From NCBI GenBank assembly GCA_965218095.1, contig OZ244587.1, positions 4,128,001 to 4,192,000 of the forward strand: 64,000 nucleotides of DNA, in the 5' to 3' direction. Numbering within the stretch: position 1 is the first letter of the stretch; every line of letters begins with the position of its first letter. This document shows, piece after piece, positions 5,614 to 55,656 of this stretch. The stretch comes from Candidatus Poribacteria bacterium (GTDB taxonomy: Bacteria; Poribacteria; WGA-4E; PCPOR2b). The notes below the pieces were generated by a model that had not been told where the DNA came from, searched no databases, and saw only the letters and a list, made by a program, of their open reading frames with translations. The position numbers and the translations under genes were made by a program.

Positions 5614-7998
5614 TCAGGGATTGGGTTTGAGTGTCAGCGTATGGCTCGTTGGGCCGGGCGAGAAGGGTAGAGGTTCTCCTTTCACCCAATAATTGTGCTG
5701 GTCCTTGTAGTTCTCTGATAAAGGGTGACCCGATTGGCCGCAAGGTATATGCAGAATCCCATCCGCATGGCGTCCCGGGGAAATGACCATGCGTTCAGAT
5801 GCACGTGGAGACCGAAGGCAGAGATCGCCTCCTGGAAGGGGATCCTGAGACATGTTCAGTATCCTGCCCAGTACAGGAATAAACCCTAGGGGATGTGAGA
5901 TTCGAGCTGTATGAATACTGCCCCAGGTCAATTGATCTAATGACTTAAAATTGTATTCGCTACGTAGTTGTTCGATGGATTCTTCCAGTTTCGAGAGGAT
6001 AAACACCTCCCAGTCTGGATAATGCGCAGGGTCTGGAAGGATTTCTGCAATCCTTTCTCTTAGCAGCATACGGAGTGGCGCTTCCATATTCCTCCAAGTA
6101 TATGAGAACCTTTCATCAGCTTCCTGACAAAGGGCTAAAAATGGTTCAAATACATCTTCAGCCAGAATTTGCCGGAAACGAACCAGAAGTCCGAAAGCTA
6201 CACTGGCGACCTCCGCTTTACCATTCCAGGCTTCTATGTGTTTATGCGCCTCTAATAAGAGTGGTTCATTTGCAATGACATTGTCGGTCAAAACGGACAG
6301 CGCTAACTGTTGGTAAAATTCATAGAAGTGGCTCGTCGTATCCAACTGGAGTTGGAACATATCCTGTTCTGTAATCTGATCCATTTCACGCAATCGCTCG
6401 CTGATTCGGTAAGCTCGATAGCTATTGGCGAAGTTATGGCCGATTACGTAGGGATAGTCTTTACCAAGCGTCCGATTATTCGCGGTCGCGAGAAAACCCT
6501 CTGGCGGAGCAATTACACGTGGCAATTCAGATGGCGGAATATAACCTTCCCAGCCAATGTGACCATCCGCCCAGGACTTGGTGGAAGATCCATCAAATCC
6601 CTTTCGAATGGGAATTTTCCCACAATATGTCCAAGCAATTCGTCCGGTGTCGTCAGCCACGATTACATTTAGCGGTGGTCCGCCAAAGTGATTCATGATG
6701 ATCAGTGCATCTTCAAGTATCATCGCTTTATCCATATCAAGTAGACCCATCCCAACCGCTTGGGGCTGCAGAGCTGTCCAATGAATGGCGACCGGTTGGC
6801 CCATCAGTGGGGTTTGACTGACAGGGCCCCAGATTGTGAGCTTGATAGGCTGGACAACGTGCTGTCCGCCTTTGATTTGGATCCGCTCGTTGGCGACCTC
6901 AAATCGTCTCCAGCCATTTGGCGTCTTGTATTCATCTGGATTTTCGGGATTAATCTCCAACTGGACCAGGTCAAGGAAATCCCCACCGATATTGGTGAAC
7001 CCCCAGGCAACATGTCCGTTGGATCCGACAATCACAATGGGAATACCCGGCAGGATAAGGCCTGAAATCTCAACGTTTCCATAGCGAAGATACGCCCGAT
7101 ACCACATATTCGGTACAGAAAGGCCTATGTGTATATCGTTGGCCACAATCGCCCGACCATCTGCAGTCTTGGATTGATCAACTGCCCAATTATTTGACCC
7201 CACGACGAGGGGCGTTGCGTGAACCAGTTTTGCTGTGCGTTCTCGGTTCTGCTTTGACACGCGGCGAATCGAAGCAAGCGCCTCGACAGGAATGGGCCGA
7301 ATTGGCCGGTGAGAGTCAGCGCCCCCCAAGAGAACCTGAGTATAGCTATCTGTATCAGGGGTCAGAAAAGCGACAACTTCTGGTGGGAGTGACTTTTCCA
7401 TGATAGTCATCATCCTTTCGTCGTCATCCCTGAAAGATAGTATCTGAAACATATTGAGGGCGACAAGGATGCTATCTTCCACTGTCCAGGGTTCTGGCCG
7501 ATAACCCAAGATGAGAAATTCAAAAGGGGCAGTGTCCATTTGGTGGATAAATGCATTCACCCCATCGGCGTAGGCAACAAAGATTTTTTTCTGTTCATTG
7601 GGGAGATTGGCAACAATCGCCTGGGTCACACGGTTGAATCCGATAACTCTTTGCTGCTTATCGGTTTCTATTGCAATTCTGCCGACGATTTCGGAAAGCC
7701 GCCCGGTGGCTCGGCGGCGCAGTAAATCCATCTGGAAGAGCCGATCGCGGGCGGTCACGTATCCCAACGCCAGCGCGGCATCCCTTCGCGTTTGGGCGAT
7801 AATCGTTGGAATCCCAAAGCGATCCGAAGTAATCGTAACCGGCAGGTCTAACCCCTTAATTTGTCGTTCACCATCACGGATTGGCAGAGAAGCACGAAGC
7901 TTGATGATGCTGAAAATTCCTCCACTTGCCAATACTAACAAAAGGATTAAAGGCAAGTAGAGCATGATTTTAAGAATTCGTTTTCTCTTACGAGTCAT
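5614..7998 (-). CDS. Penicillin acylase / acyl-homoserine-lactone acylase family Ntn hydrolase, N-terminal membrane anchor
   Basis: DRFGIPTI, ARDRLFQMDLLRR, catalytic GSNNW, ANDIH, TANN, GQSGHPLS. Start placed at MTRKRK. Confidence 0.9.
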   Translation of the reverse strand: MTRKRKRILKIMLYLPLILLLVLASGGIFSIIKLRASLPIRDGERQIKGLDLPVTITSDRFGIPTIIAQTRRDAALALGYVTARDRLFQMDLLRRRATGRLSEIVGRIAIETDKQQRVIGFNRVTQAIVANLPNEQKKIFVAYADGVNAFIHQMDTAPFEFLILGYRPEPWTVEDSILVALNMFQILSFRDDDERMMTIMEKSLPPEVVAFLTPDTDSYTQVLLGGADSHRPIRPIPVEALASIRRVSKQNRERTAKLVHATPLVVGSNNWAVDQSKTADGRAIVANDIHIGLSVPNMWYRAYLRYGNVEISGLILPGIPIVIVGSNGHVAWGFTNIGGDFLDLVQLEINPENPDEYKTPNGWRRFEVANERIQIKGGQHVVQPIKLTIWGPVSQTPLMGQPVAIHWTALQPQAVGMGLLDMDKAMILEDALIIMNHFGGPPLNVIVADDTGRIAWTYCGKIPIRKGFDGSSTKSWADGHIGWEGYIPPSELPRVIAPPEGFLATANNRTLGKDYPYVIGHNFANSYRAYRISERLREMDQITEQDMFQLQLDTTSHFYEFYQQLALSVLTDNVIANEPLLLEAHKHIEAWNGKAEVASVAFGLLVRFRQILAEDVFEPFLALCQEADERFSYTWRNMEAPLRMLLRERIAEILPDPAHYPDWEVFILSKLEESIEQLRSEYNFKSLDQLTWGSIHTARISHPLGFIPVLGRILNMSQDPLPGGDLCLRSPRASERMVISPGRHADGILHIPCGQSGHPLSENYKDQHNYWVKGEPLPFSPGPTSHTLTLKPNP

Positions 7999-8034
7999 AA
8001 TGATAGCTCTTTTCTGATGCTTGCTAAAGCGCAC

Positions 8035-8131
8035 TTACTTGCAAATCTCCAACTTGTTGATTTCGTGATCAGTTTTTTCGGGGCGACTCATTCACCAATG
8101 CTTCACGCTGGCAGTATTTTCCAAAATTCAT
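8035..8131 (-). pseudogene. Collapsed remnant of a ninth substrate-binding protein copy
   Basis: RBS GGAGG + ATG AAT TTT GGA AAA (MNFGK, cf. MNFGR of the copy starting at 17140) and a 3' end aagttggagatttgcaagtaa resembling KFEIFE*. Confidence 0.45.
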
Positions 8132-8155
8132 GCCCCTCCTTCGAGGTTAAGAGGA

Positions 8156-9322
8156 TTACTCGAAGATTTCAAATTTGCCGTTCTCGACAATCAGTACAAT
8201 CGGGTCGTAACCCGCGTCCCCAACGGCGTTAAAAGAGAACTTGCCCAGAACGGTGTCAAAATCTCTGATATTTGCTAACGCGTCCCGAATTGCGGTTGCA
8301 TCAGTGGATTGGGCATTCGCAATCGCTTCCGCCAGAATATAGAGAGTGGCATACGAATGCGCCGCCCAGGTGTTCGGTTCGATACCGTATGTCGCTCGGT
8401 AATTCTGGACGAAGGCTTGATTCCCTGGTGTAGAGGCGGTGCTAATCCAACTCGTAAAAGTAATCGCACCATCGGCGGCGGCACCCGCGGCTTGCACCTC
8501 GTCTCTGGTCAGATCGAGAACAATAAAGGGAACAGAGGTGGGGATACCGCGTTGGCGACCTTGAATCAGAATTTCAGTCATCTCTAGTGATAAAGCTGAG
8601 ATAAAGATAGCGTCAGGATTCAACGCCTTTATCCGAGTTAATTGGGCGGAAAAGTCGGTATCGCCGCTTTGGAAGGTCTCTGTGGTCAGCACCTCGACAC
8701 CGTTAGCAGTGAGGGCTTCCCTCAACACCTCGTCGCTATCCGTGGAGAATACATCGATTTCATCATATATCGTAGCCACCCTCTGGTAGCCGAGCTTCAC
8801 ATGAGTCGCCTTGATGCCGTTAGGAATCAGCACATCTGTGGTGAGACTGACGCGGAAGATAAAATCGCCAATCGCGCTCAAACCAGAGGCGGATGAGGTG
8901 GAGCTAAAAGCCACGACTTGGTTTTCTTGCGCGATGGGAAAAACCTCTTTGGCCTGAGTTGAGAGACCGGGACCTAAGATAGCGGGCACGTCATCTTGAC
9001 GAATCAGTTTATTGAAGGCTTCAACGGCGCCCTCTACGGTGCTCCGATCGTCCTCGGTGATGAACTTAATTCTTACATTGCCGAGTTGTGAGTTGTTAAT
9101 CTCGTTGAGAGCCAGGTCAAAGCCACGTTGCGTTGGTAGGTGGCCATAGGCGGAGACGAATCGCCCTGTCAGAGGTAAGACGACGCCGATGGGAATCTCT
9201 CCACTGAGCCCTTCCATCTGAGGCGTCGCGGGTTGCTGGTTCTGATCACAAGCGGAAAGTCCCACAATCAGCGCCGCAATCGCCAATACAAACGCGAATC
9301 TGGTGGGCCGTCTGATATTCAC
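8156..9322 (-). CDS. LivJ/LivK-like ABC substrate-binding lipoprotein, copy 8 of array (last transcribed)
   Basis: Lipobox LSAC, EIPIGVVLPLTG, EDDRS, GDFIFR, DTDFSAQL; GTG start after AGGAG. Confidence 0.9.
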   Translation of the reverse strand: MNIRRPTRFAFVLAIAALIVGLSACDQNQQPATPQMEGLSGEIPIGVVLPLTGRFVSAYGHLPTQRGFDLALNEINNSQLGNVRIKFITEDDRSTVEGAVEAFNKLIRQDDVPAILGPGLSTQAKEVFPIAQENQVVAFSSTSSASGLSAIGDFIFRVSLTTDVLIPNGIKATHVKLGYQRVATIYDEIDVFSTDSDEVLREALTANGVEVLTTETFQSGDTDFSAQLTRIKALNPDAIFISALSLEMTEILIQGRQRGIPTSVPFIVLDLTRDEVQAAGAAADGAITFTSWISTASTPGNQAFVQNYRATYGIEPNTWAAHSYATLYILAEAIANAQSTDATAIRDALANIRDFDTVLGKFSFNAVGDAGYDPIVLIVENGKFEIFE

Positions 9323-9371
9323 ATTGAATCTCCTTCTTTTCAAATTAAAAAAACGGCGTACTGCCCTAAGA

Positions 9372-9396
9372 GGGCACCCACAAGGGGTGCCCCTAC
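9372..9396 (-). repeat. GTAG-type REP palindrome
   Basis: GTAGGGGCACCCCTTGTGGGTGCCC on the minus strand. Confidence 0.75.
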
Positions 9397-9419
9397 AAAC
9401 CCTTCTGGCGTTTAGAGGC

Positions 9420-10604
9420 TTACTCAAAGATTTCAAATTTGCCGTTTTTGACAATCAGTACAATCGGGTCGTAACCCGCGTCCCCAACGGCGTTAAAAGA
9501 GAACTTACCCAAAATGGTGTCCAGATTTGTGATATTCGCTAGCGCGTCGCGAATCGCGGCTGAATCGGTGGATTGTGCATCCGAGATTGCTTTCGCCAAG
9601 ATGTAAACGGCGGCGTACGACTGCGCTGCCCAGATGCTAGGTTCCATACCGTATTTCGCGCTGTAATTCTGAACGAAGGCTTGATTTCCCGGTGTGTCAG
9701 CCGTACTGACCCAGCCGGTAAAAGTAATCGCCCCCTCGGCGGCATCACCCGCACTTTGTACGTCATCTACCGACAGAACTATACTAATAAAGGAAATCTC
9801 AGAAGGAATCCCAAGCTGGCGCGCTTGGGTGAGAATCCGAATCAACTCTATTTGTTGAGAGAAGACGAAGATGGCTTCTGGGTTTGAGTCCTTGATGCGA
9901 GTTAATTGCGCGGAAAAGTCGGTATCACCGGTTGCGAAAGTCTCTGAGGTCAGCACCTCAACCCCGCTGGCGAGTGTTTGTTTAAACACCATGTCGCTAT
10001 CCCGAGAAGCGAGATCGACCGTATCAGTTATCGTCGCGACCCGCTGGTAGCCGAGTTTCTCCTGAGTAACCTTGACGCCCCCAGGAATCAACACATCTGT
10101 GGGGTGACTTGCCCGGAAAATAAAATCGCCAATCGTGGTCAAGCCAGAGGCATTAACGACAGGGCTAAAAGCCACAACCTGATTTTCTTGTGCGATTGGG
10201 AAAACAGATTGGGCGACGTGTGAGGTCCAGACACCGAGGATCACAGAGACTTTGTCTTGATGGACCAGTTTATTGAAAGCCGCTATCGCACCTTCAACGG
10301 TGCTCTGGTCGTCCTCAATGATGAACTTAATTCTCACATCGCTGAGTTGTGAGTTGTTGATTTCTTCGAGAGCCATGTTAAAACCATTTTCCATCACTAA
10401 GGCGCCCGGCCCGAATTCACCGGGACCTAGATCCCCGGTCTGCGGCAAGACGACACCGATGGGAATCTCCCCACGGAGCCCTTCCATCTGAGGCGTCTCC
10501 CCACTCGACAGAATCGAAACCAACTCATCGCAGGCAGAAAGCCCCGCAATCAGCGCGGCAATCGCCAAGGCAGAAACGAATGTAGTGCATCTTCGGATTT
10601 TCAC
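9420..10604 (-). CDS. LivJ-like substrate-binding lipoprotein, copy 7
   Basis: Lipobox LSAC and the same paralog motifs. Confidence 0.9.
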   Translation of the reverse strand: MKIRRCTTFVSALAIAALIAGLSACDELVSILSSGETPQMEGLRGEIPIGVVLPQTGDLGPGEFGPGALVMENGFNMALEEINNSQLSDVRIKFIIEDDQSTVEGAIAAFNKLVHQDKVSVILGVWTSHVAQSVFPIAQENQVVAFSPVVNASGLTTIGDFIFRASHPTDVLIPGGVKVTQEKLGYQRVATITDTVDLASRDSDMVFKQTLASGVEVLTSETFATGDTDFSAQLTRIKDSNPEAIFVFSQQIELIRILTQARQLGIPSEISFISIVLSVDDVQSAGDAAEGAITFTGWVSTADTPGNQAFVQNYSAKYGMEPSIWAAQSYAAVYILAKAISDAQSTDSAAIRDALANITNLDTILGKFSFNAVGDAGYDPIVLIVKNGKFEIFE

Positions 10605-10697
10605 ATTGAACCTCCTTGTTTTTAAATAAAAAAACGCAACCCTAAGCGGGCAACCACAAGGGTTGCCCCTACTACGAACCTCTTTGGATTTAGAGAC
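10605..10697. repeat. Intergenic spacer near-identical to 13193-13285, containing a REP palindrome (10648-10672)
   Basis: Direct comparison: attgaacctccttgtttttaaataaaaaaacgca.ccctaagcgggcaaccacaagggttgcccctactacgaacc is shared. Confidence 0.9.
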
Positions 10698-11864
10698 TTA
10701 CTCAAAGACTTGGAATTGGCCGTTCTGGACAATCAGTACAATCGGGTCGTAAACTGCGTCCCCGACGGCGTCAAAAGAGAATTGACCTAAAACGGTGTCG
10801 AAATTTTTGGTATTTGCCAGTGCATCCTGAATCGCCGTTGGATCGGTGGATTGGGCTTCCGCAATCGCCGCGGCGATGATATAAACAGCAGCATACGACT
10901 GCGCGGTCCAAGCGTTCGGTTCACTCCCATACGTCGCTCGGTACTTCTGGACGAAGGCTTGATTTCCCGGTGTATCCGCCGTGCTAATCCAACCTGCAAA
11001 AGAGATTGCCCCCTCGGCGGCAGCCCCTGCGTTTTCCACATCGCTTATCAGGCTAGTAATATAGGGAACCTCAGTGGAAATCCCAAGCTGGCGGCCTTTA
11101 ACCTGAATTCTGATTAACTCCGGTTGTTGCGCTGCGATAAAGATGGCATCAGGATTTGCGTCCTTTATCCGAGCCAATTGTTCGGAAAAATCGGTATCAT
11201 CGCTTCGGAAGGTCTCTGTAATCAGAATCTTGACACCGATCTCAGTGAGCGTGTCCCTGAACTTTTCATAGCTATCCATAGAATAGGAATCAATTTCATC
11301 ATATATGATTGCTACCCTTTGATAGTCAAGTTTCGCCTGCGTTTTCCTGACGCCATCAGGAAGCAGCACATCTGTGGTGAGCCCGGCGCGGAAGATAAAA
11401 TCGTCAAATGCATTCAGACCAGCACGATTTGAGGAGGAACTAAAAGCCACAACTTCATTCTGTTCTGCGATTGGAAACGCCGCTTCGGCTTGATCTGAAG
11501 TTGTGGGACCGAAGATAATAGGCACACCATCTTGATAAACCAGTTTCTTATAGGCTTCGACGGCCCCCTCATCGGTGCCCTGGTCGTCCTCTATGATGAA
11601 CTTAAGTCTCACATCGCCAAGTTGTGAGTTGTTAATCTCTTCGAGAGCTAGCTCAAAGCCACGTTGTATAGGTAGCGCAAACGTGGCAAGACGTCCGGTG
11701 ATAGGATAGACAAGGCCAATGGGAATCTCCCCACGGAGCCCTTCCATCTGAGGCGTCTCGCCGTTAGATAAAATCGAAATGAACTCATCGCAGGCGGAAA
11801 GCCCCGCCATCAGCGCGGCAATCGCCAATACAAATGTGAATCTTGTGATTCTTCTAATGTTCAT
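10698..11864 (-). CDS. LivJ-like substrate-binding lipoprotein, copy 6
   Basis: MNIRR...LSAC; RBS AGGAGG. Confidence 0.9.
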   Translation of the reverse strand: MNIRRITRFTFVLAIAALMAGLSACDEFISILSNGETPQMEGLRGEIPIGLVYPITGRLATFALPIQRGFELALEEINNSQLGDVRLKFIIEDDQGTDEGAVEAYKKLVYQDGVPIIFGPTTSDQAEAAFPIAEQNEVVAFSSSSNRAGLNAFDDFIFRAGLTTDVLLPDGVRKTQAKLDYQRVAIIYDEIDSYSMDSYEKFRDTLTEIGVKILITETFRSDDTDFSEQLARIKDANPDAIFIAAQQPELIRIQVKGRQLGISTEVPYITSLISDVENAGAAAEGAISFAGWISTADTPGNQAFVQKYRATYGSEPNAWTAQSYAAVYIIAAAIAEAQSTDPTAIQDALANTKNFDTVLGQFSFDAVGDAVYDPIVLIVQNGQFQVFE

Positions 11865-12001
11865 GTTGAACCTCCTTGTTTTTAGTTGTTGATTGATAAG
11901 TTGCGACCTATCGTCAGAAAAACCGAGTCTTGTATCAAGTCTCCCTTGACGTCTAAAAAAAACGCTTTTTGGCAAAGTATTACCCTCTAGCGTTTGGAGG
12001 A

Positions 12002-13192
12002 TTACTCGAAGACTTCCAATTGGCCGTTCACCACAATCAGTACCTTCGGATCGTAAACGGCATCCCCGACAGCGTCAAAAGAGAATTTTCCGAAAACGGT
12101 ATCGAAATCTGTGATATTCGCCAACGCGTCTCGAATTACGGTTGAATTGGTGGATGGAGCGTTGGCAATTGCCTCAGCCAAAATATGGAGGGCGGCATAT
12201 GACTGCGCGGCGTAATTGTTCGGCTCCACCCCGTATTTCGCGCTATAATTCTGGACAAAGGCGTGATTTCCCGGTGTGTCAGCCGCGCTTGCCCAACCAA
12301 CAAAGGTAATCGCCCCCTCAGCGGCATCACCCGCAGCTTGCACATCGGCTATGGTCAACGTGCGAATAATAAACGGCACCGAGTCGGGGATGCCGAGTGC
12401 GCGCCCTTGAATCAGAATCCCGGGCTTTTCTGGGGGTAAAGCGGAGATAAAGATAACATCAGGATTTGCCTCCTTTATCCGGGTTAATTGAGCAGAAAAA
12501 TCGATATCACCGTCTTGGTCGGTATCACCGCCCTGGAATGTCTCTGTAATCAACACCTTGACGCCGTTCGCAGCGAGCACTTCCCTCACCGCCTCATCGC
12601 TATCCGTGGAGAAAACATCGCTTTCATCATACATCGTCGCCACCCGTTGATAGCCGAGCTTTGCATGAGTCGCCTTGATGCCGCTTGGAATCAGCACATC
12701 TGTGGTGAGAGCGACGCGAAAAACAAAATCACCAATCGCGCTGAGTCCGCGGGCGGCGGATGTCGGGCTAATCGCCACAACCTGATTCTGTTGCGCTACC
12801 GGAAACGCCTCTTTGGTCGCACTTGAGGTTGCGGGACCGAGGATAGCAGACACGCCCTCTTGCTGAATCAGTTTATTGTAGGCTTCAACGGCGCCCTCAA
12901 CGGTGCTCCGATCGTCCTTGATGATGAACTTGATGGTTGCATCGCCGAGCTGTGAGTTGTTAATATCTTCGAGAGCCAGGTCAAAGCCATGTTGCATTGG
13001 TCGGCCAAACGAAGAGGCGAGTCGCCCTGTCAGAGATAAGACGACGCCAATAGGAATCTCTCCACTGAGCCCTTCCATCTGAGGTGTTGCAGGGAGGAGA
13101 AGTTGCTGGATCTGGTCGCAGGCGGAAAGCCCCACAATCAGGAGGGCAATCGCCAAGACAAACGCAAATGGAGTGAATCTTCTGATATTCAC
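12002..13192 (-). CDS. LivJ-like substrate-binding lipoprotein, copy 5
   Basis: LSAC lipobox; carries the GGDTDQDGDIDF micro-duplication. Confidence 0.9.
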   Translation of the reverse strand: MNIRRFTPFAFVLAIALLIVGLSACDQIQQLLLPATPQMEGLSGEIPIGVVLSLTGRLASSFGRPMQHGFDLALEDINNSQLGDATIKFIIKDDRSTVEGAVEAYNKLIQQEGVSAILGPATSSATKEAFPVAQQNQVVAISPTSAARGLSAIGDFVFRVALTTDVLIPSGIKATHAKLGYQRVATMYDESDVFSTDSDEAVREVLAANGVKVLITETFQGGDTDQDGDIDFSAQLTRIKEANPDVIFISALPPEKPGILIQGRALGIPDSVPFIIRTLTIADVQAAGDAAEGAITFVGWASAADTPGNHAFVQNYSAKYGVEPNNYAAQSYAALHILAEAIANAPSTNSTVIRDALANITDFDTVFGKFSFDAVGDAVYDPKVLIVVNGQLEVFE

Positions 13193-13285
13193 ATTGAACC
13201 TCCTTGTTTTTAAATAAAAAAACGCAGCCCTAAGCGGGCAACCACAAGGGTTGCCCCTACTACGAACCGCTTTGGATTTAGAGGC

Positions 13286-14449
13286 TTACTCAAAGACTTG
13301 GAATTGGCCGTTCTGGACAATCAGCACAATCGGGTCGTAAACGGCATCCCCGACAGCGTTAAAAGAGAACTTGCCCAAAACGGTGTCGAAATCTCTGATA
13401 TTCGCCATCGCATCCCGAATCGCGGTTGAATCGGTGGATTGGGCGTTCGCAATCGCTTCCGCCAGAATATAGACAGCGGCATACGACTGTGCGGCGAAGG
13501 CGTTAGGTTCAATACCGTATGTCTCTCGATAATTCTGGACGAAAGCTTGATTTCTTGGTGTGTCAGCCGTGCTGGCCCAACCCGTAAAAGCAATCGTACC
13601 CTCGGCGGCATCACCCGCGGCTTCCACTCCGCCTCGGGTCAGCGTGGGAGCAATAAAGGGAACAGAGGAGGGGATACCGAGTCGGCGACCTTGAATCAGA
13701 ATCCCGGGCTTTTCTAGCGGCAGAGTTGAGATAAAGATAGCGTCAGGATTTGCCTCCTTTATCCGAGTTAATTGAGCGGAAAAATCGGTATCACCACCTT
13801 GGTCGGTATCACCACCTTGGAAAGTCTCTGTGATTAACACCTTGACGCCGTTCTCAGCAAGCGCTTCCCTCACTACCTCGTCGCTATCCGTGGAGAAGAG
13901 ATCGTTTTCATCATACATCGTAGCCACTCTTTGGTAGCCGAGCTTCTCCTGAGTCGCCTTGACGCCGTTAGGAATCAGCACACCTGTGGTAAGACCGGCG
14001 CGGAAGATAAAATCACCAATCGCGCTCAGGCCAGAGGCAGCGGATGTCGGGCTAAAAGCCACGATCTGATTCTGTTGCGCGATCGGAAAAGCCGCTTGAG
14101 CCTGACTTGAGGTCGCGGGACCGAGGATCGCAGGCACGCGATCTTGATGAATCAGTTTATTGAAGGCTTCAACAGCGCCCTCAACGGTGCTCCGACCATC
14201 CTCGATGATGAGTTTGATTTTTGCGCCGCCGAGCTGTGAGTTGTTAATCTCTTTGACAGCTAGTTTAAAGCTGTATTCCACCGGCAGGGCAATCGGTCCG
14301 AGTCGTCCTGTGATAGGATGGACGACACCGATGGGAATCTCTCCACTGAGCCCTTCCATCTGAGGCGTCTCACCGTTATCATCGCAGGTGGAAAGCCCCG
14401 CCATCAGCGCGGCAATCGCCAAGACAAACGTGATTCTTCTCATGTTCAT
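13286..14449 (-). CDS. LivJ-like substrate-binding lipoprotein, copy 4
   Basis: LSTC lipobox; GGDTDQGGDTDF micro-duplication. Confidence 0.9.
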   Translation of the reverse strand: MNMRRITFVLAIAALMAGLSTCDDNGETPQMEGLSGEIPIGVVHPITGRLGPIALPVEYSFKLAVKEINNSQLGGAKIKLIIEDGRSTVEGAVEAFNKLIHQDRVPAILGPATSSQAQAAFPIAQQNQIVAFSPTSAASGLSAIGDFIFRAGLTTGVLIPNGVKATQEKLGYQRVATMYDENDLFSTDSDEVVREALAENGVKVLITETFQGGDTDQGGDTDFSAQLTRIKEANPDAIFISTLPLEKPGILIQGRRLGIPSSVPFIAPTLTRGGVEAAGDAAEGTIAFTGWASTADTPRNQAFVQNYRETYGIEPNAFAAQSYAAVYILAEAIANAQSTDSTAIRDAMANIRDFDTVLGKFSFNAVGDAVYDPIVLIVQNGQFQVFE

Positions 14450-14627
14450 GTTGAACCTCCTTGTTTTCAAATAAAAAAAATCAGGCGGGGGACAATCGAG
14501 GAAACCTGCCCCCCAGACCTGATTGGTTGGGGATTGATATTCGGAAAATGGTTATTAAAACTGAAGTACCTGTTATCAGCAAGTGGCTGATGACGCGGTT
14601 ACGGTTATGCCCATCCGCCGTTGCGGA
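14450..14627. repeat. Structured intergenic spacer paralogous to 15792-15970
   Basis: Shared blocks (gatattcggaaaa...attaaaactgaag...gctgatgac...ggttatgcccatcc); hairpin + U-tract before the RBS on the minus strand. Confidence 0.8.
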
Positions 14628-15791
14628 TTACTCGAAAAGTACAAACTCGCCGTTTTCGACGGTAAGCACTATCGGATCATAGACCGCTTCCCCGTTGGGG
14701 TCAAAAGAGAACGCCCCCAAAACGGTGTCGAAATCCATGGTATTCGCCAGCGCGTCCCGAATTGCCATTGCATCGGCAGATTGCGCTTCCATAATCGCCG
14801 CAGCAAGAATATGGAGCGTCGCATACGACTGTGCCGCCCAAGCAGCCGGCTCCATCCCATATTTCTCGGTATAACTCTGGACGAAAGCTTGATTCATCGG
14901 CGTGTCAGTCGTGCTAAACCAACCTATAGCAGTAGTCGTTCCCTCGGTGGCATCACCCGCGACTGCCACCTCAATACTGGTCAGTTCGGGAACAACAAAG
15001 TGTACAGAAGGCATGAGCTGACGCGCTTGAATCATAATCTGAGGTATGTGGGATCCTAAAGCGGAGATAAAGAAGACATCAGGATTTAACGCCATTATCC
15101 GAGTTAATTGCGCCGAAAAATCGGTATCACCACCTTGGTAGGTCTCTGTGGCCACAACTTCGACGCTGTTTTCGACAAGCGCAGCCCTGAACTCTTCGTC
15201 GCTACGCGTGGCGTAGGTATCGCCATCGTGATATATCGTAGCCGCCTTTTGGTAACCGAATTTCTCATGAGTCGCTTTGACAGCAGCAGGGTTAAGCACA
15301 CCTGAATTGAGCCCTACACGGAAGATAAATTCGCCACGCGAACTCAGATCTGGGGCAGACGAGACTGAGCTAACAACGACAACCCCGTTTTCTTCCGCTA
15401 TTGGGATTACCTGTTCAAGCTGGGTTGAGATAGCGAAACCAACAATAGCAGATACCTCATCCTGATGAATCAGTTTATTGACGGCTTCAACGGCACTCAC
15501 GCTTTGATCATCCTCAACAATGAAGGTAATCTTTGCATCGCCGAGCTGTGAGTTGTTAATATGTTCGCGAGCAAGTTCAAAGCCATCTAGCATTGGTAGG
15601 CCATACGGGGCGGCGAATGGCCCTGTCTGTGCCAGAACGACACCGATGGGAATCTCTCCACTGAGACCTTCCATCTGAGGCGTCTCGCCGTTAGACAAAA
15701 TCGAAACTAGCTCATCGCAGGCAGAAAGCCCCGCAATCAGTGCGACAATCGCCAAGACATACGCGAATGTGGTGCTTCTTCTAATGTTCAT
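14628..15791 (-). CDS. LivJ-like substrate-binding lipoprotein, copy 3
   Basis: MNIRR...LSAC. Confidence 0.9.
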   Translation of the reverse strand: MNIRRSTTFAYVLAIVALIAGLSACDELVSILSNGETPQMEGLSGEIPIGVVLAQTGPFAAPYGLPMLDGFELAREHINNSQLGDAKITFIVEDDQSVSAVEAVNKLIHQDEVSAIVGFAISTQLEQVIPIAEENGVVVVSSVSSAPDLSSRGEFIFRVGLNSGVLNPAAVKATHEKFGYQKAATIYHDGDTYATRSDEEFRAALVENSVEVVATETYQGGDTDFSAQLTRIMALNPDVFFISALGSHIPQIMIQARQLMPSVHFVVPELTSIEVAVAGDATEGTTTAIGWFSTTDTPMNQAFVQSYTEKYGMEPAAWAAQSYATLHILAAAIMEAQSADAMAIRDALANTMDFDTVLGAFSFDPNGEAVYDPIVLTVENGEFVLFE

Positions 15792-15970
15792 GTTGAACCT
15801 CCTTCGTTTTGAAATTAAAAAAATAGGCGGGGCAGAATCGAGAAAATCTCCCCCCACCCAAGCCTGATTTGTTGTTGATTGATATTCGGAAAACATTATT
15901 AAAACTGAAGAGCCCGTCATCAGCGGGCGGCTGATGACAGAGTTAAGGTTATGCCCATCCATTGCTGGGC

Positions 15971-17140
15971 TTACTCGAAGACTTCAAATTGGCCGTTCTT
16001 GACCCTAAGTATCTGCGGGTCGTAAACCGCATCCCCGACCGCATCAAAAGAGAACTGGCCTAAAATGATGTCGAAATCTCTGGTATTCGCCATCGCATCC
16101 CGAATCGCGGTTGAATCGGTGGATTGCGCCTCCATAATCGCCGCGGCGAGAATTTGGAGCGTCGCATACGACTGCGCCGCCCAAGCGTTCGGCGCCATCC
16201 CGTATTTCTCGGTATAACTCTGGATGAAGGCTTCATTCCCTGGGGTAGCAACGAGGCTGGACCAACCTATAAAGGTAATCACACCCTCCGCGGCATCACC
16301 CGCGGGTCGCACCTGTTCTATTGACAGTTCGGGCAGAATAAAGGGAACCGAGTCAGGGATACCGAGCTCGCGACCTTGCGTCAGAATCAGAGGCATCTCC
16401 GGTGGTAAGGTTGAGATAAAGATGGCTTCAGGGTTCAACTCCATTATCCGAGTTAATTGCGCGGAAAAGTCCGTATCGCCACTTTGGAAGGTCTCCGTGG
16501 TCACAATCTCGACGCCGTTCTCAGCGAGAGCTGCTTGGAACCCCTCGTGACTGCTCGTTGAGTAGAGATCGCTTTCATCATATATGGTCGCCGCTTTTGT
16601 ATAGCCGAGTTTCTCCTGAGTGATCCTAACGCCGCTTGGATTCAGGATATCTATGGTGAGCCCCGCGCGGAAGATGAAATCGCCTATCGCGCTCAGACCG
16701 GAGGCGGAAGAGACTGAGCTAAAAGCTACAATCCCATTTTCTTGCGCTATCGGAAACGCATGTACGGCTTGAGATGAGATAGCGAGTCCGATGATAGCAG
16801 ACACACCATCTTGATGAATCAGTTTATTGAATGCTTCAACGGCACTCTCGCTCCGATCGTCCTCGGTGATGAAGGTAATTGTTGCACCGCCGAGCTGCCC
16901 TGAATTGTTAATCTCTGCACGAGCGAGTTCAAAGCCATTTTGCATCGGTATACCAATTTCGTCGGCGAATCGCCCTGTCAGAGCTACGACGAGGCCAATG
17001 GGAATCTCTCCACTGAGCCCATCCATCTGAGGTGGGGCAGGGAGGAGAAGTTGCTGAATCCGGTCACAGGCGGAAAGTCCCGCAATCAGCGCGACAATCG
17101 CCAGTACAAATGCGAATTTGGTGAATCTTCCGAAGTTCAT
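15971..17140 (-). CDS. LivJ-like substrate-binding lipoprotein, copy 2
   Basis: MNFGR...LSAC. Confidence 0.9.
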   Translation of the reverse strand: MNFGRFTKFAFVLAIVALIAGLSACDRIQQLLLPAPPQMDGLSGEIPIGLVVALTGRFADEIGIPMQNGFELARAEINNSGQLGGATITFITEDDRSESAVEAFNKLIHQDGVSAIIGLAISSQAVHAFPIAQENGIVAFSSVSSASGLSAIGDFIFRAGLTIDILNPSGVRITQEKLGYTKAATIYDESDLYSTSSHEGFQAALAENGVEIVTTETFQSGDTDFSAQLTRIMELNPEAIFISTLPPEMPLILTQGRELGIPDSVPFILPELSIEQVRPAGDAAEGVITFIGWSSLVATPGNEAFIQSYTEKYGMAPNAWAAQSYATLQILAAAIMEAQSTDSTAIRDAMANTRDFDIILGQFSFDAVGDAVYDPQILRVKNGQFEVFE

Positions 17141-17428
17141 TTTTAACCTCCATAGTTTCAAATGAAAAAGTTGAAACGGGGCAGCATCCAGAAAATCTAC
17201 CCCAAGCGGATTCGTTATTGATTGATGAGATTAGACTCAAGTTGCGATCTGTCATCAGAAAAAGCGGATTTTTGTATCAAGTTTTCCTTGATGCCTAAAA
17301 ACTCGCTTTTGGGCAAAGCCTTCCCCTTTGACATTTCGGCGTGAAAAACCTGACCTTTGCCTATTTTTCCATAGATTACAGTCGTTGTCAAACTAAAAAA
17401 CGGAGGGGTTTCTTAACGGAATAGGGAC

Positions 17429-18607
17429 CTACTCGAAGACCTGAAATTCGCCGTTCTCGACAATCAGTATGATTGGGTCGTAAACTGCATCCCCAACCGC
17501 GTCAAAAGAGAATCTACCCAAAATAGTGTCAAAATCCATGATATTTGCCATAGCATCCCGAATCGTGCTCGAATCTATTGATTGTGCCCTCTTCATAGCC
17601 GCCACCAATATATAGACGGAAGCATACGCCTGCGCTGCCCAGATGTTCGGTTCGACGCCGTATTTCGTACTGTAATTCTGAACGAAGGCTTGATTTCCCG
17701 GTGTGTCAGCCGTGCTGACCCAGCTGGTAAAAGTGATCGCCCCCTCGGCAGCATCGCCTAGGAATTGTATCTGATCCGAGGCAAGGGTAACAGTAACAAT
17801 AAAGGGAATGTCGGCGGGGATGCCAAGCTGACGACCTTGCATCAGAATCTTGGTCGTCTCTAGTGGCAATGCTGAAATAAAGATGGCGTCAGGATTTGAA
17901 TCCTTGATGCGAGTTAATTGGGCGGAAAAGTCAGTTTCGCCGGTTTCAAAGGTCTCTGTGGTCAAAATCTCGACACCGTTCGCATTGAGCGATTCTGTCA
18001 ACATTGCATCGCTACTCTGGGAAAAGAAATCAAGGCTATCGGCTATTTTAGCAACTCGCTGATACCCCAGTTTTTCATGGGTAATCTGGACACCGATAGG
18101 CACAAGTTTATCTACAGTGAGACTCGCCCGAAAGCCGAAATCGCTAAGCGCGCTGAGTCCACGGGCGGCGGATGTCGGACTAAACGCCACGACCTGATTC
18201 TTTTGTGCAATCGGAAAAGTCTTTTTAGTCGCACTTGAGGTCGCGGGACCGAGGATAGCAGGGACTTTGCCTTGAGCAATCAGTTTCTTGTAGGCTTCAA
18301 CTGCGCCCTCCACGGTGCTTCGATTGTCCTTGATAATGAACGTGATTCTCGCATCGCCGAGCTGCGCGTCGTTAATCTCTTCAAGAGCCAACTCAAAGCC
18401 TTGTCCCATTGGTTCGCCAAACGCATCGCCGAGCCGCCCTGTCAGAGGTAAGACGGCGCCGATGGGAATCTCTCCGCTGAGACCTTCCATCTGAGGCGTC
18501 TCGCCGTTAGACAAAATCGAAACGAACTCATCGCAGGCGGAAAGCCCTCCCATCAGAGTGGCAATTGCCAATACAAACGTGAATTTTGTGATTCTTCTAA
18601 TGCTTAT
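17429..18607 (-). CDS. LivJ-like substrate-binding lipoprotein, copy 1; start codon reads ATA
   Basis: aaggaggttcaacATAagc at the position where paralogs have aggaggttcaacATGaac; LSAC lipobox; rest of frame open. Confidence 0.8.
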   Translation of the reverse strand: MSIRRITKFTFVLAIATLMGGLSACDEFVSILSNGETPQMEGLSGEIPIGAVLPLTGRLGDAFGEPMGQGFELALEEINDAQLGDARITFIIKDNRSTVEGAVEAYKKLIAQGKVPAILGPATSSATKKTFPIAQKNQVVAFSPTSAARGLSALSDFGFRASLTVDKLVPIGVQITHEKLGYQRVAKIADSLDFFSQSSDAMLTESLNANGVEILTTETFETGETDFSAQLTRIKDSNPDAIFISALPLETTKILMQGRQLGIPADIPFIVTVTLASDQIQFLGDAAEGAITFTSWVSTADTPGNQAFVQNYSTKYGVEPNIWAAQAYASVYILVAAMKRAQSIDSSTIRDAMANIMDFDTILGRFSFDAVGDAVYDPIILIVENGEFQVFE

Positions 18608-18731
18608 GTTGAACCTCCTTCGTTTCCACAGAGAGTGGAGGACAGGGGAGCAGGCAAGCCCGCCCGCTCGGATGGTCCCCTGTACGCCTGCCCATCCGCT
18701 TTCAAACCTGTCCTTACTAGCATACAACCAT

Positions 18732-18760
18732 ATTATACCCCATTTTCCACAATGAGGCAA
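18732..18760 (-). promoter_or_regulatory. Candidate sigma70 promoter at the head of the lipoprotein array
   Basis: TTGCCT-N17-TATAAT. Confidence 0.55.
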
Positions 18761-18989
18761 AACCTTTTTGCCAATCAGCCAAGACTTCGGCGAGCTCAAT
18801 TGACCGCTCCATCAATCGGGTATGTGTAAAAAACGCGACCCATGTCTGCCCGCTCGAACTCTGTAGCGCCTCAAAGGGTAAATCGTAGACCGCCTCCAAC
18901 TGCTGCTGCGTAAAAACCGTCTCAGGTGTTCCAATGGTGACCGTTTCGCACGGTTTATCTCCACTCCCCGATCGGCGTCAGAGACATGC

Positions 18990-19018
18990 TTGATAGTCAT
19001 TACGCGATGTGTTATACT
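18990..19018 (+). promoter_or_regulatory. Candidate sigma70 promoter
   Basis: TTGATA-N17-TATACT. Confidence 0.45.
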
Positions 19019-19092
19019 TTCGGCCGAAAAGAGAAAATGATTCTCCTGAACAACTATCTTAAAAAGGGCTTATTCCGCTAATGGAGGGAATC

Positions 19093-19239
19093 ATGTCTCG
19101 CTGTACAATCCCACCTGACACTAGAGGAATACCTCGCTTTGGAACGCAAGGCGACGACCAAAAGCGAATACCTCAACGGTCAGACTTACGCGATGTCCGG
19201 TGCCAGTCGGGCGCATAATCTCCTCTCTGTTGACTGTTG
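19093..19239 (+). pseudogene. Uma2-family endonuclease 5' fragment
   Basis: HLTLEEYLALERKATTKSEYLNGQTYAMSGASRAHNLL, then truncation; frameshift near the start. Confidence 0.75.
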
Positions 19240-19418
19240 AGATCAAAAGGCTTTTCCGTATAAAACCGTTCTAAACCCCTTTCAAAATTGGGTCAAGAAG
19301 AAAACCCGGACTTTCTCGCCAACCCTTTACAAAAATAGCGGACTATGCTATTATTACGCCTACATTTACGCATTACAGAGTAACGTTGACCAACCATCTA
19401 AGCACATAGGGAGAAAAA

Positions 19419-20315
19419 ATGTTACAACCCAACGATTCATCACAAGCAAGCAACAGGGAAGCCGCCACAACGGCGCCGCTTCAACCGATGGGGTTCACGG
19501 ATATTCTGGACACAATATTCAGTCTCTATCGGAACCACTTCCGGCTGTTTTTAGGCATCTGCGCCGTTTATTTCGTTTTAACGTTAGGGTTGGACCTGCT
19601 CACAGGTATTTCAACGTTTTTCTTTGCCAGTTCCGGCCGATGGAGCATGATGATAGCAATAACCCTCGTTACTTCCTTGATTGCCATTGTGGTTGGTCTT
19701 TTCGTCATAGGTGGGGTTGTGTTCGCCGGTGCCCAAGCCTACTTAGGCAGGCACATCACAGCCCGCGCCGCATTCAGGCAAGCCAAACGCCGGTTTTGGC
19801 CCTACTTCGGAAGTGGTCTACTCTGGCTGTTAGTTGTTGGGGTATTGGCGATAACCATCATCGGTATCCCGGTCGCCATCTATTTTGGAACGCGTTGGAC
19901 TTTCTACACACAAGCTGTTTTAATTGAGGAGACCTCGGCGTGGAATGCGCTGAGACGCAGCCGTGAATTGGTCAAAGGCGCGTGGTGGCGCGTCTTTGGT
20001 ATCGTGTTAGCAATTTTTCTGCTTTTTTCCACGATTCAAATCATACTTCAATTCTCTTTATTATTCGTGTTCGGTATAACGCAAGCGATAGGTGATGAAG
20101 GGGATCTGGTGGAAATGTTTCGACGGTTATTCGTGCCGGAACTGACGACTCGGGACGGGTTGGTCACTTACGTGATTCAGAACTTCATCAACCACGTCGT
20201 CGCGAGCCTGACACTGCCGATTGGGATAATCGGTATCACGCTTCTCTACTTCGACCAGCGTATTCGGAAAGAGGGGTTTGATATTGAGATGCGTGTGACC
20301 AACGAGGCGATGTGA
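19419..20315 (+). CDS. Multi-pass membrane protein (glycerophosphodiesterase membrane-domain-like)
   Basis: PMGFTDILD, ALRRSRELVKGAWWR, LLYFDQRIRKEGFDIE; hydrophobic segments. Confidence 0.75.
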   Translation: MLQPNDSSQASNREAATTAPLQPMGFTDILDTIFSLYRNHFRLFLGICAVYFVLTLGLDLLTGISTFFFASSGRWSMMIAITLVTSLIAIVVGLFVIGGVVFAGAQAYLGRHITARAAFRQAKRRFWPYFGSGLLWLLVVGVLAITIIGIPVAIYFGTRWTFYTQAVLIEETSAWNALRRSRELVKGAWWRVFGIVLAIFLLFSTIQIILQFSLLFVFGITQAIGDEGDLVEMFRRLFVPELTTRDGLVTYVIQNFINHVVASLTLPIGIIGITLLYFDQRIRKEGFDIEMRVTNEAM

Positions 20316-50372: not shown

Positions 50373-50502
50373 CCTTTGGTGCTAGTTGGTGAGGAGGTAG
50401 TTTCCACAAGGGGAGGTAGTTTCCACAAGGGTTGTAGAATTTACATATTCGACCTCGCAAAGAATAGATCGTTGCTATGACTGGATCTTTGGTTTCAAAC
50501 TA

Positions 50503-51338
50503 GGTTCTGTTGACATTTCAAGGGAGCCATATAAGAGTGGCGACAAAGCTGAGAAATCCAAAATAACGGACAGCTAGCTTCTCAAACCGAGAGAAGATAC
50601 GACGATACCATTTTATCTTGTTGATGAAACATTCAACCCGATGTCTCTCTTTGTATAAGCGTTTGTCATACGTTCTTTGGTCAACACGATGACTTTTTGG
50701 CGGTATCACCGCAATCGCTCCATTCGCCTCAATAACCGCGATAAAAGCGTCCGAATCGTACCCCTTGTCTCCAATCACATATTCACTATTGTATCCGATT
50801 ATCAACCCTTCCGCCTCAGTTATGTCATGTCTCTGACCGGGGATCAGATGAATTCTTAGCGGATTGCCTAGTCCGTTAACTGTGATGTGATTTTTTGTAC
50901 TGAAACCGCCCCGAGACCGACCTAATGCTTGGTTTTCAGTGCCACCGTTTTTTTTAAGGCGCCAGCTTTTTAAGGCGCCCGCCGCAGACGGGTGAGCGCG
51001 GCAGATGGTACTGTCCACAATAAGCGACTCGATATCGGGGTCAGAGGCGAAGTGGTGGTGCATCTGTGTGAAGATACCTTTGTCGCACCATCGAGCAAAC
51101 CGCTTGTAGCGGGTGTTCGATTTGCCATAGGTGTCTGGTAGAAGTCTCCATTGAGCCCCGCTACGAGTCACCCACAGGACAGCTTCGACGAAGCAGCGTG
51201 TAGCAGCTTCGTCGCCAACATAGATGGTGGGACAGCTTAGAAGAAACCGGTATATCTTATTCCATTGTTCATCGGGTAAGGTTATTGGCATCATTCTTCT
51301 ATTATGCCACAACCTTATACTCAAATGTCAACAGAACC
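50503..51338 (-). mobile_element. IS5-family element (IS427-like) with single-frame transposase 50518-51324
   Basis: 16-bp IR GGTTCTGTTGACATTT; TA duplication in a CTAG target; VDST, GRSRGG.STK, GDKGYDS, YKERHRVE. Confidence 0.9.
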
Positions 51339-51385
51339 TAGCACCATTAATTATAATCCTAACTATCCAAAAGAGGGAATGAACG

Positions 51386-52333
51386 ATGGGTATATTGCGA
51401 TCCACCCGAGATGAAGATCTCACCCAATTAAGCGAGTCTGCTACGCGAGACTGCAAGCACCTGCTTGATGATGTCTTCCGCCGCAGTCGTGGCGTGACCG
51501 ACCAGCATATCTTCACGGACTTTCCACTGGTGTTTGCGCCCGCGAATCACCGCAACTGTCGCATCATGGTCGAAGATGGGATGGTTGTTAGCCACGCAGC
51601 ACTATGGGAGCGCGAGTTGGTGGTAGACGATGCGCGGCTGAAAGTCGGCGAGATTGTCGTCGTTGCCACGCACCCCGATTACCGCCTGCGCGGCTATGCC
51701 GCTTCGTTGATGCGCGACTTGCAGGCGACAATGCACGATGAGAATTACGACATGGGCATCCTGTGGACGGGCGTGCCTGATTTCTACCGTAAACAGGACT
51801 AGGAAGTTGTCACACCGCGCGGGTGGGTTGTCGAAATGGATGGCGTCCAATTGCCGAGGGGGGAAGATGTTATCAGCCGTTATGACGAGGTGTGGCACTT
51901 AGATGGGGTCATTGCTCTCCACGAGCAAGAGCCGGTCAGATTTTCACGAAGTCAAGACGAAGCCGTGGCGCTACTTGCTTTGCCAAAGATAGACGTTTGG
52001 GTGACTACCCACAACGGAGAAATTGTCGCGTATCTGGTTCGTGGTGAAGCGGTGAACAAACGCGGCATCATCGAGTATAGCGGCGAGGTAAACAGCATCC
52101 TCGCACTCATTGCCCACGTTCTCAAACAGCAACCATCAACCGCCAATACACGTCTCCTCGCTTATCACATCCGCCCAGATCTCATTGCGCGACTCCGTGC
52201 GTTAGGCGCAAGAATGCGACCGCTCGCAGGCTCAAAGGGTGATGGCAGCGAGATGATTTACGTTGTCAATCCCTCGCGGGTGACACCGCACGTGCGTGAG
52301 CAATTATTTGTCTGGGGATTAGACCACGCCTAG
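51386..52333 (+). pseudogene. GNAT acetyltransferase with in-frame TAG at 51800-51802
   Basis: VATHPDYRLRGYA, FYRKQD*EV (W expected); both ORFs share a frame. Confidence 0.8.
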
Positions 52334-52486
52334 AATTCATTTCGATTGTAAAACAGGACTTGACACTAACACACTTGTACGGCAAAATGGCAAATCAAAA
52401 AACGTAAAGCCGTAAAACGTTTCAACCCAATTCGATAAAAGCCACCGTTGCCTTCATGTTTGGCAATAGATACAGGAGTCCATAGA

Positions 52487-53344: not shown

Positions 53345-53371
53345 TTTGTGATAGACGTGAAAGGTGATTCG

Positions 53372-54434: not shown

Positions 54435-54457
54435 TCGTAACCCAAGTTGCTAGTAAT

Positions 54458-55568: not shown

Positions 55569-55656
55569 AGTAATTACGCAATAAGTAGTTTTGGACTTGG
55601 GAAAAGTTTTGGAAGTTTATCAGAGAACCTATACGATTCTAATTGGAGGGTAGGCA

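Follow-up and report, generated by a model that had tools for sequence, protein, structure and literature searches.

Eight LivJ-like lipoprotein genes in tandem

The DNA analysed here, hereafter the window, is a stretch of 64,000 nucleotides (positions 4128001-4192000) of the 6.35-Mb single-contig genome of a sponge-symbiont Candidatus Poribacteria (G000). Its minus strand carries, at 8156-18607, eight head-to-tail genes for LivJ-like solute-binding lipoproteins, numbered g8 to g1 from the first to the last. All eight open reading frames (ORFs) match the Pfam family PF13458 (Peripla_BP_6), with E values of 7e-55 to 4e-62 and scores of 187-212 bits for a cut-off of 31.7, so that the same-strand run of paralogues announced by the first-pass annotation, which a model had made from the sequence alone, is indeed present. 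That annotation took the array for a repertoire of surface receptors shuffled by recombination. We consider it likely that the array is an old, inherited one whose receptors have different pockets and serve a dispersed multi-receptor ATP-binding cassette (ABC) importer of the LivJ/LivK/NatB type (HAAT).

Gene starts were placed at the ribosome-binding site AAGGAGG plus 7 nt, with the upstream regions aligned on the lipobox cysteine: a site of this type lies 7 nt before the start codon in each of the eight copies. The start codon is ATG or GTG in seven of them and ATA (18605-18607) in g8, the first gene of the array (17429-18607, orthogroup f; orthogroups are defined below). This ATA stands behind a good ribosome-binding site, and no in-frame ATG, GTG or TTG would yield a leader of normal length. 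Then come g7 (15971-17140, orthogroup a), g6 (14628-15791, orthogroup e), g5 (13286-14449, orthogroup g), g4 (12002-13192, orthogroup b), g3 (10698-11864, orthogroup c), g2 (9420-10604, orthogroup d) and the last gene, g1 (8156-9322), all on the minus strand and all coding for solute-binding lipoproteins. Compared pairwise, the eight copies are 56-76% identical in amino acids and 66-82% in nucleotides.

The description of near-constant ends and variable middles holds in the alignment: the 5' block, from the lipobox (LSAC..) to EIPIG, and the 3' block (FSF.AVGDA.YDP) hardly change, and the variation is found after IPIG and ILGP. Two N-terminal types had also been said to alternate. Both are present and mixed along the array, but they are interleaved rather than strictly alternating, the linkers from g8 to g1 being of types E, Q, E, short, Q, E, E and short Q-like. 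A DTDQ duplication reported in two copies is found in g4 and g5; in g5 it is a perfect tandem repeat of 18 nt in two copies (13785-13820). This insertion, found in only 2 of the 143 family copies examined, is missing from 16 other members of orthogroup b.

For g4, AlphaFold2 with an alignment of 50 rows gave a model of mean pLDDT 90.1, in which residues 26-40, the linker, are below 50, and the predicted structure is that of a two-lobe type I periplasmic binding protein. Its best structural match is 4obb, a binding protein of Anabaena (Z 47.9, root-mean-square deviation 1.9 A, 343 of 364 residues, 26% identity), and the Anabaena protein with keto acid or valine gives Z of 47.9 and 47.7. Next come the LivK of Thermotoga (47.2), the LivJ of Streptococcus (44.5) and SAR11_0655 with pyroglutamate (44.2), then binders of aromatic acids, urea and amides (41-42), among them the amide sensor AmiC (41.6). 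By sequence the closest solved chain is 4nqr, a HAAT amino acid/amide binding protein (E 5.5e-36).

All eight copies begin with a short hydrophobic leader and a lipobox whose sequence is LSTC in g5 and LSAC in the others, with Asp at position +2. Genes for Lgt and LspA and a LolA-like gene are present in the genome, therefore a diderm lipoprotein pathway exists. In E. coli, Asp at +2 retains lipoproteins in the inner membrane. By analogy this residue suggests that the proteins are not exposed at the surface, which falls short of proof for this phylum.

Inherited cores and homogenised ends

A pattern scan using one genome per species returned 60 loci, whose titles name Candidatus or uncultured Poribacteria in 56 cases, Gemmatimonadota in three and an “uncultured bacterium” in one; the spread of the family outside Poribacteria is given as seen by this pattern-based scan alone. 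Matches at E<=1e-40 occur in 23 of 31 genomes (G000 and its 30 nearest), often 7-16 in each and mostly in tandem, and 18 fetched loci hold tandem arrays of 5-9 copies. The array is therefore a feature of the lineage and not a peculiarity of the window genome. The relatives compared belong to other genera than that of the window; these genera bear labels such as genus g4, g5 or g11, distinct from the gene names.

A tree of 141 rows, two short rows being left out, separates the copies into orthogroups, each represented about once per genome and at corresponding places in the arrays, with Shimodaira-Hasegawa-like supports of 97-100. A 44-row IQ-TREE analysis gives support of 99-100 to the groups holding g2, g3, g4, g6, g7 and g8, and a single clade made of the eight window copies is rejected (log-likelihood difference 999.9; approximately unbiased test, p-AU 1.9e-93). 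Sliding windows tell the same: the cores of g7, g6, g3 and g2 are 85-97% identical in nucleotides to copies of other genera, against 65-80% to the paralogues of their own genome. Written as strings of orthogroups, the gene order is f a e g b c d h in the window, a b c (i) j k l m in the majority of genus g4 genomes, and g e d a b c k in one genome from genus g5. The a-b-c backbone is kept in most of the 19 arrays listed, and the strings thus indicate that this backbone stays while membership shifts through gain and loss.

Two side observations concern the relatives. Orthogroup m, at the last position of genus g4 arrays, lacks the lipobox cysteine in six of six members (L012_p7, L013_p8, L014_p7, L016_p8, L026_p7 and L030_p5), with for example FSTYAQ or VPPWDQ at the site, so that this receptor, judged from its sequence, is probably not lipid-anchored. 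Orthogroup m is not represented in the window, where a relic of a ninth copy, described below, occupies that position. Besides, three Gemmatimonadota contigs from sponge-associated bins hold one family copy each (L025:9899-11158, L018:4475-5659 and L019:171-1439). The Gemmatimonadota copy nests inside a Poribacteria orthogroup, carries the linker of the window type, and has a GC content of 50.6% within a contig of 58-64%. An M19 dipeptidase gene follows it, and genes for M17 and M32 peptidases are also near in L025. This looks like a cross-phylum transfer between sponge symbionts.

The orthologues evolve under purifying selection, with ratios of nonsynonymous to synonymous divergence (dN/dS) of 0.11-0.25; for paralogues the ratio is 0.24-0.40. 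Synonymous divergence (dS) is 0.45-1.2 between paralogues and 0.32-0.78 between orthologues.

Recombination between the copies, as claimed by the first-pass annotation, is nevertheless real. Our own implementation of the pairwise homoplasy index (PHI) test gave z of -5.3 to -7.1 with none of 2000 permutations reaching the observed value, and in MaxChi tests of 11 triplets none of 300 permutations did so for any triplet. What recombines is mostly the ends. In g3, g2 and g7 the informative sites of the core (about nt 130-1075) side with the orthologue, by 221 to 54, 205 to 55 and 192 to 32 respectively—in g3 the orthologous core runs from nt 126 to 1072—but the first ~130 nt and the last ~100 nt follow the paralogues of the same genome. 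The linker type CDE..S[IV]LS.GETPQ illustrates this: only 7 of 143 copies carry it, of which four are window copies from four different orthogroups, and the orthologues of these four elsewhere carry the common CDQIxQLL linker (111 of 143 copies). A lineage-specific linker common to four non-orthologous copies indicates a concerted evolution of leader and linker. In g6 the linker (nt 72-129) was converted from a paralogue, with 17 informative sites against 0, and g7 has a linker of the Q type. At the other end, the final ~70 nt of g5 and g3, together with the entire spacer after each, form a second tract, of 90-97% identity.

Some exchanges reach the ligand-binding domain. The copy g8 is orthologous only at nt 460-895 (126 informative sites against 15) and g4-like elsewhere; g1 joins a g4-like 5' third to a g5-like rest; and tracts were exchanged inside the domain of g1, g4 and g5. 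Chimeric copies are thus g1, g4, g5 and g8, and four of the eight copies have purely orthologous cores. The chimeras keep the pocket residues of an orthogroup: Gly77, Leu78 and Asp227 of orthogroup i in g1, and in g8 the orthogroup-f signature at all listed specificity positions of the C-lobe. Gene conversion thus homogenises the leader and linker as well as the 3' end with its spacer, and has made the chimeras: the recombination is real and of an ordinary kind. Such homogenisation of ends between neighbours is not limited to the window genome, since in L012, L020, L023 and L026 (copies p2/p3) an orthogroup-c copy bears the linker variant of the neighbouring orthogroup b (..EDVSVEI..), orthogroup c having ..MEGLSGEI.. 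elsewhere.

The spacers show the same exchanges. All three recurrences between non-adjacent spacers listed in the first-pass annotation stand, with scores approached by none of 200 shuffles. The 93-nt spacers g5-g4 (13193-13285) and g3-g2 (10605-10697) agree at 90 of 93 positions, and the 97-nt spacer g2-g1 (9323-9419) is a diverged form of them (81 of 101 columns); the 178-nt spacer g6-g5 (14450-14627) and the 179-nt spacer g7-g6 (15792-15970) are homologous (145 of 182 columns); and the 137-nt spacer g4-g3 (11865-12001) is partly homologous to the 288-nt spacer g8-g7 (17141-17428), with 94 of 128 columns in common for 11880-12000 and 17215-17340. Downstream of g1, the proposed collapsed ninth copy is found as a degenerate 3' end whose frame is broken, on the minus strand at 8038-8128, colinear with the last 90 nt of the family genes and ending at TAA. 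Its score of 6 compares with at most 2 among 300 shuffled sequences and at most 1 among 300 random 91-mers of the window. This significance depends on anchoring the alignment at the stop codon: in an unanchored local alignment of the 121-nt spacer between g1 and the amidase gene to gene starts and ends, the best scores were 13 and 17 for a shuffle maximum of 19. The segment GAAGGAGGGGCATG, possibly taken as a gene start in the first reading, aligns better with the head of the usual spacer.

In the 93-nt spacers a long GC-rich hairpin followed by U7, terminator-like in form, ends ~12 nt before the next ribosome-binding site. The spacer 13193-13285 folds at -36.2 kcal/mol (z -3.8) and its sisters have z of -1.9 and -1.3; the terminator reading rests on these folds, a generic terminator scan being no richer than shuffles (12 found, 13.2 expected). 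The 25-nt core of the hairpin (13230-13254, 10642-10666 and 9366-9390) recurs at 21 places of the genome with at most four substitutions, several variants having compensating changes in both arms, with clusters near 0.25 Mb and 5.14 Mb. It thus behaves, from its sequence, like a repetitive extragenic palindromic (REP)-type element that is not specific to the array. A CCUC-type motif is present within the first 6 nt after the stop codon in five of the nine spacers listed, namely four array spacers (for example 13280-13285, 10692-10697, 9414-9419 and 11996-12001) and the g1-amidase spacer. The best fold of 13193-13285 pairs this motif with the GGAGG of the next gene, a pairing absent from the fold of the sister spacer; this may be an anti-Shine-Dalgarno arrangement, which would couple the translation of neighbours. 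An Rfam scan of 7900-19500 (E<=0.1) gave no match.

A promoter-like site, TTGCCT and TATAAT separated by 17 nt, lies upstream of g8 at 18732-18760 on the minus strand and is a consensus match only; another, in the g8-g7 spacer (17391-17363), has 10 of 12 matches with the TG present. The promoter scan as a whole was barely above shuffles (14 found, 10.2 expected). Contigs of sponge metatranscriptomes, from three runs of one study, match pieces of g2, g3, g4, g5, g6 and g7 with 0-3 differences, which hints that several copies are transcribed in the population; the parts of the array left uncovered are no evidence of silence. Joints on the array seen in metagenome contigs were not used as evidence of rearrangement: their flanks are of 20-75 nt at 90% likeness, and joints of this kind often stem from repeats or other organisms.

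Pockets, transporter parts and competing readings

For mapping the pockets, LivJ and LivK of E. coli (K-12 record) were aligned with the family. We take the LivJ pocket to consist of 11 residues—Tyr/Trp18, Leu77, Cys78, Ser79, Ala/Gly100, Ala101, Thr102, Tyr150, Tyr202, Glu226 and Phe/Tyr276—of which Ser79, Thr102, Tyr202 and Glu226 hold the alpha-amino and alpha-carboxylate groups; these residues have the expected identities in the E. coli sequence. Of 350 domain columns, 22 are conserved within orthogroups (mean at least 0.85) and carry at least four different residues between them, for nine orthogroups of at least five members each. Nine of these 22 columns lie within one residue of the LivJ pocket residues, a zone of 24 columns (hypergeometric p 2e-6). 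Ser79 is the same throughout; eight different consensus residues occur at position 18, which varies more than any other pocket position; Ser, Ala, Asn, Ile and Gly are found at position 102; and g2 has Trp at position 77. The paralogues thus differ where ligands are read, each difference being old and conserved, which fits a fixed panel of specificities. The diversification of ligand range proposed by the first-pass annotation is therefore plausible, since the paralogues differ most at pocket-lining positions, but not its generation by shuffling, the pocket signatures being fixed in each orthogroup. The pattern does not show, at the level of sequence, that the ligands are branched-chain amino acids.

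The annotation had noticed no permease or ATPase gene in the window, and this stands: a scan of the window's 36 other ORFs of at least 150 aa (E<=1e-12) detected no ABC permease or ATPase family, nor did a scan of the three ORFs flanking the array, and the six genome matches of BPD_transp_2 all lie outside the window. Genes of the livHMGF type, sought in the whole genome, are present and dispersed as LivH/LivM-type permease pairs and a LivG/LivF-like ATPase pair. At 2.84 Mb there is a permease pair without an adjacent binding protein or ATPase; at 1.217 Mb, a LivH/LivM-type pair with its own binding protein, only 29% identical to gene g5; at 3.97 and 4.83 Mb, single permease genes; and at 0.86 Mb, a lone LivG/LivF-like ATPase pair with the BCA_ABC_TP_C signature. 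The latter (~0.859 Mb) adjoins a phage-type integrase gene.

The comparison of genomes points to the 2.84 Mb pair. In three genomes of the deeper genus g11 its orthologue (68-74% identity) is located 5-6 kb from a five-copy array, with two further Peripla_BP_6 genes between the pair and the array. Among 22 relatives with arrays, 17 have an orthologue at 59% identity or more; among the 8 that lack arrays, 2 have one. The threshold was picked post hoc, and the genomes are not independent. The 1.217 Mb pair was rejected as the partner: apart from having its own divergent binding protein, its permease was not found (E<=1e-30) in four array-bearing genomes of genus g5, and is present in two genomes without arrays. 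We infer that the array most likely works with the 2.84 Mb permease pair. In the three genus g11 genomes a hybrid sensor kinase with receiver, PAS and HATPase domains also adjoins the permease pair beside the array (L077:1553-3655, L078:13087-15144 and L079:14952-17000), and in two of these three scanned loci (L077 and L079) a cytochrome P460-family gene lies between binding-protein genes.

The neighbours of the array were not retained as functional partners. The gene downstream, at 5614-8034, codes for a protein of the penicillin-amidase family which is not beside the arrays in six other loci, and the flanks differ by genus. No recombinase gene is nearer than ~32 kb, the nearest transposase and integrase being at 50.5 and 56.4 kb in window coordinates. 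Flanking inverted repeats are absent, with only four weak inverted pairs seen (76-80% complementarity), and so are hypermutable repeats, the tandem repeats amounting to three short two-copy ones. Farther off, the region 50500-60100 has a low GC content (40-44%, for ~50%) and carries an IS4/5-type transposase, an rve-type integrase and two DNA methylase genes; from its gene content it is probably a mobile restriction-modification island.

Brought together, these data lead to the following picture. Each copy is a separately translatable gene with its own lineage of orthologues, its pocket signature being held by purifying selection. Each protein would be exported and acylated at the lipobox cysteine, and the Asp at +2 would probably hold it at the inner membrane, on the periplasmic side, by a disordered tether of ~15 residues. 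There it would capture a different small solute, amino acids or related acids, and all receptors would supply one common LivH/LivM-type permease with genes elsewhere in the genome, most likely the 2.84 Mb pair, powered by the LivG/LivF-like ATPase pair at 0.86 Mb. Gene conversion between neighbours homogenises signal peptide and linker at one end, 3' end and spacer at the other, with a few chimeric copies as a result, and unequal crossing-over would alter the copy number, as in the case of the ninth-copy relic. The array probably widens in this way the range of solutes imported.

Several observations weigh against this picture. Four complete genomes of genus g5 have arrays but no pair of the 2.84 Mb type, their best paralogues being 36-37% identical; as both the 2.84 Mb and the 1.217 Mb types are absent from these four, no single partner fits all lineages. 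PF02653 also covers sugar permeases, so that the class of the 2.84 Mb pair rests on the genus g11 linkage. In the pockets, position 202, Tyr in LivJ, is Leu, Gln or Thr, and position 226, Glu in LivJ, is a gap in seven of the eight window copies and Val in g8: with Tyr202 and Glu226 not kept, the LivJ way of holding the alpha-amino group is not conserved. The copy g8, with its ATA start, may be weakly translated or beginning to decay. The Asp+2 rule is that of E. coli and may not hold in Poribacteria, and the RNA-library contigs give neither strand nor level and may contain DNA.

Three competing readings were weighed. One is that surface receptors form a recombining set of cassettes serving antigenic or phase variation, with frequent new mosaics and a switching of expression between copies. 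It would agree with the significant PHI and MaxChi signals; the recurring spacers and gene ends could serve as recombination substrates, copy number and membership vary between genera, a collapsed copy is present, and the organism lives inside an animal host according to record titles and a sponge metagenome label. But the orthologous cores are stable across genera and under purifying selection (dN/dS 0.11-0.25). All eight copies are complete genes and not silent cassettes, each full-length with its own ribosome-binding site, start codon, leader and lipobox, and the sole truncated copy is a decayed 90-nt relic. Neither an invertase or recombinase beside the array nor inverted or hypermutable repeats were seen, Asp+2 and LolA-type sorting favour the inner membrane over the surface by the E. 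coli rule, and RNA-library contigs match at least six copies at once. We therefore regard antigenic or phase variation as very improbable. Nor does the wider idea of a shuffling repertoire survive the tree-like cores closer to other genera than to in-genome paralogues, the a-b-c order and the pocket signatures held within orthogroups: tree-like divergence, fixed gene order and conserved pockets, the very pattern named beforehand as contrary to shuffling, are largely what the relatives display. One might still see recombination as an adaptive engine, gene conversion repeatedly building new two-lobe pocket combinations faster than point mutation could. The junction in g8 of a g4-like N-lobe with an orthogroup-f middle part (126 informative sites against 15), the tracts swapped inside the domain of g1, g4 and g5, and a paralogue dS only about twice the orthologue dS are in its favour. 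However, even in the chimeras g1 and g8 the pocket signature remains that of an orthogroup, half of the copies have purely orthologous cores, and the comparison genomes all come from other genera, so that the conversion events are undated; we find this reading unlikely.

Alternatively the proteins might be mainly extracytoplasmic sensors that report solutes to a sensor kinase or a chemoreceptor, instead of transport or besides it. The hybrid sensor kinase beside the array-linked permease pair of genus g11 goes in this direction, as does the presence of AmiC among the structural matches (Z 41.6), and binding proteins that stimulate signalling proteins are a known class (PMC8050422). The kinase of genus g11, however, has no obvious periplasmic docking domain in the Pfam output, and it is not beside the array in the window or in six other arrays with scanned flanks; the closest matches in sequence and structure are transport binding proteins, and the genome does contain a permease pair that lacks a binding protein of its own. 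A main role as sensors thus appears improbable to us, and the importer with an inherited panel of receptors remains the preferred reading. A bolder version of it, which we put forward tentatively and consider possible but rather doubtful, is that of a nutrient interface specific to the symbiosis: a fixed panel of at least eight receptors tuned to sponge-derived amino acids or related acids would feed one dispersed importer, gene conversion would keep leader and tether uniform because every receptor has to arrive and dock at one common site, and the receptors would be of such value in the sponge that a Gemmatimonadota lineage living there too acquired one, now placed among peptidase genes.

Comparison with known systems

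The array had been presented as a candidate for an undescribed system. We did not keep this view: orphan binding-protein genes are reported to be frequent in bacteria (PMC3223731). A literature search (Poribacteria with ABC transporters, livK, or metatranscriptome solute-binding) gave no paper describing this array within the literature searched. In an Aplysina metaproteome, LivK-type binding proteins ranked second among bacterial functions by frequency, with 82 proteins (PMC6081418). As Poribacteria are uncultured, the array offers a concrete panel of receptors for the host-derived solutes that they take up. It further provides a clean case, found in nature, of concerted evolution at the gene ends around ligand-binding cores that remain distinct, without being a new kind of molecular system.

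The LivJ/LivK receptors of E. coli with LivHMGF (HAAT, TC 3.A.1.4) belong to the same Pfam family and have the same two-lobe fold, and there too several receptors with different pockets serve one permease. Position 18, Tyr in LivJ and Trp in LivK, separates these two proteins, and the same position is the most variable in the pockets of the array. The array differs by its 8-9 copies instead of two, by receptors that are lipid-anchored and not soluble, by a distance of ~1.3 Mb to the candidate permease, and by Tyr202 and Glu226 not being conserved. In the cyanobacterial Nat (N-I) importer the HAAT-type genes for binding protein, permease and ATPase are scattered around the chromosome, as in the array genome, with one binding protein, NatB. 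The closest solved relative is the HAAT binding protein of Anabaena variabilis (4nqr, 4nv3 and 4obb), crystallised with valine and keto acid following the entry titles; it is a single protein, 26% identical, so its ligands cannot be transferred to eight differing pockets.

Borrelia burgdorferi, with OppA1-5 and OppBCDF, offers a host-associated parallel: multiple lipoprotein receptors, some encoded apart from the permease, serve one importer (PMC7822543). These OppA proteins are unlike the array in belonging to the peptide binding-protein family (cluster C) and in their fewer copies. We know of no analysis of a concerted evolution of the Borrelia OppA copies. A further likeness is that of the importers with orphan or multiple receptors (Thomas 2010, “Homes for the orphans”, cited in PMC3223731), where receptor genes are likewise apart from the transporter and several receptors use one translocator. 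Unlike these orphans, those of the array form one long tandem array conserved across genera, and the permease and ATPase pairs also stand each alone.

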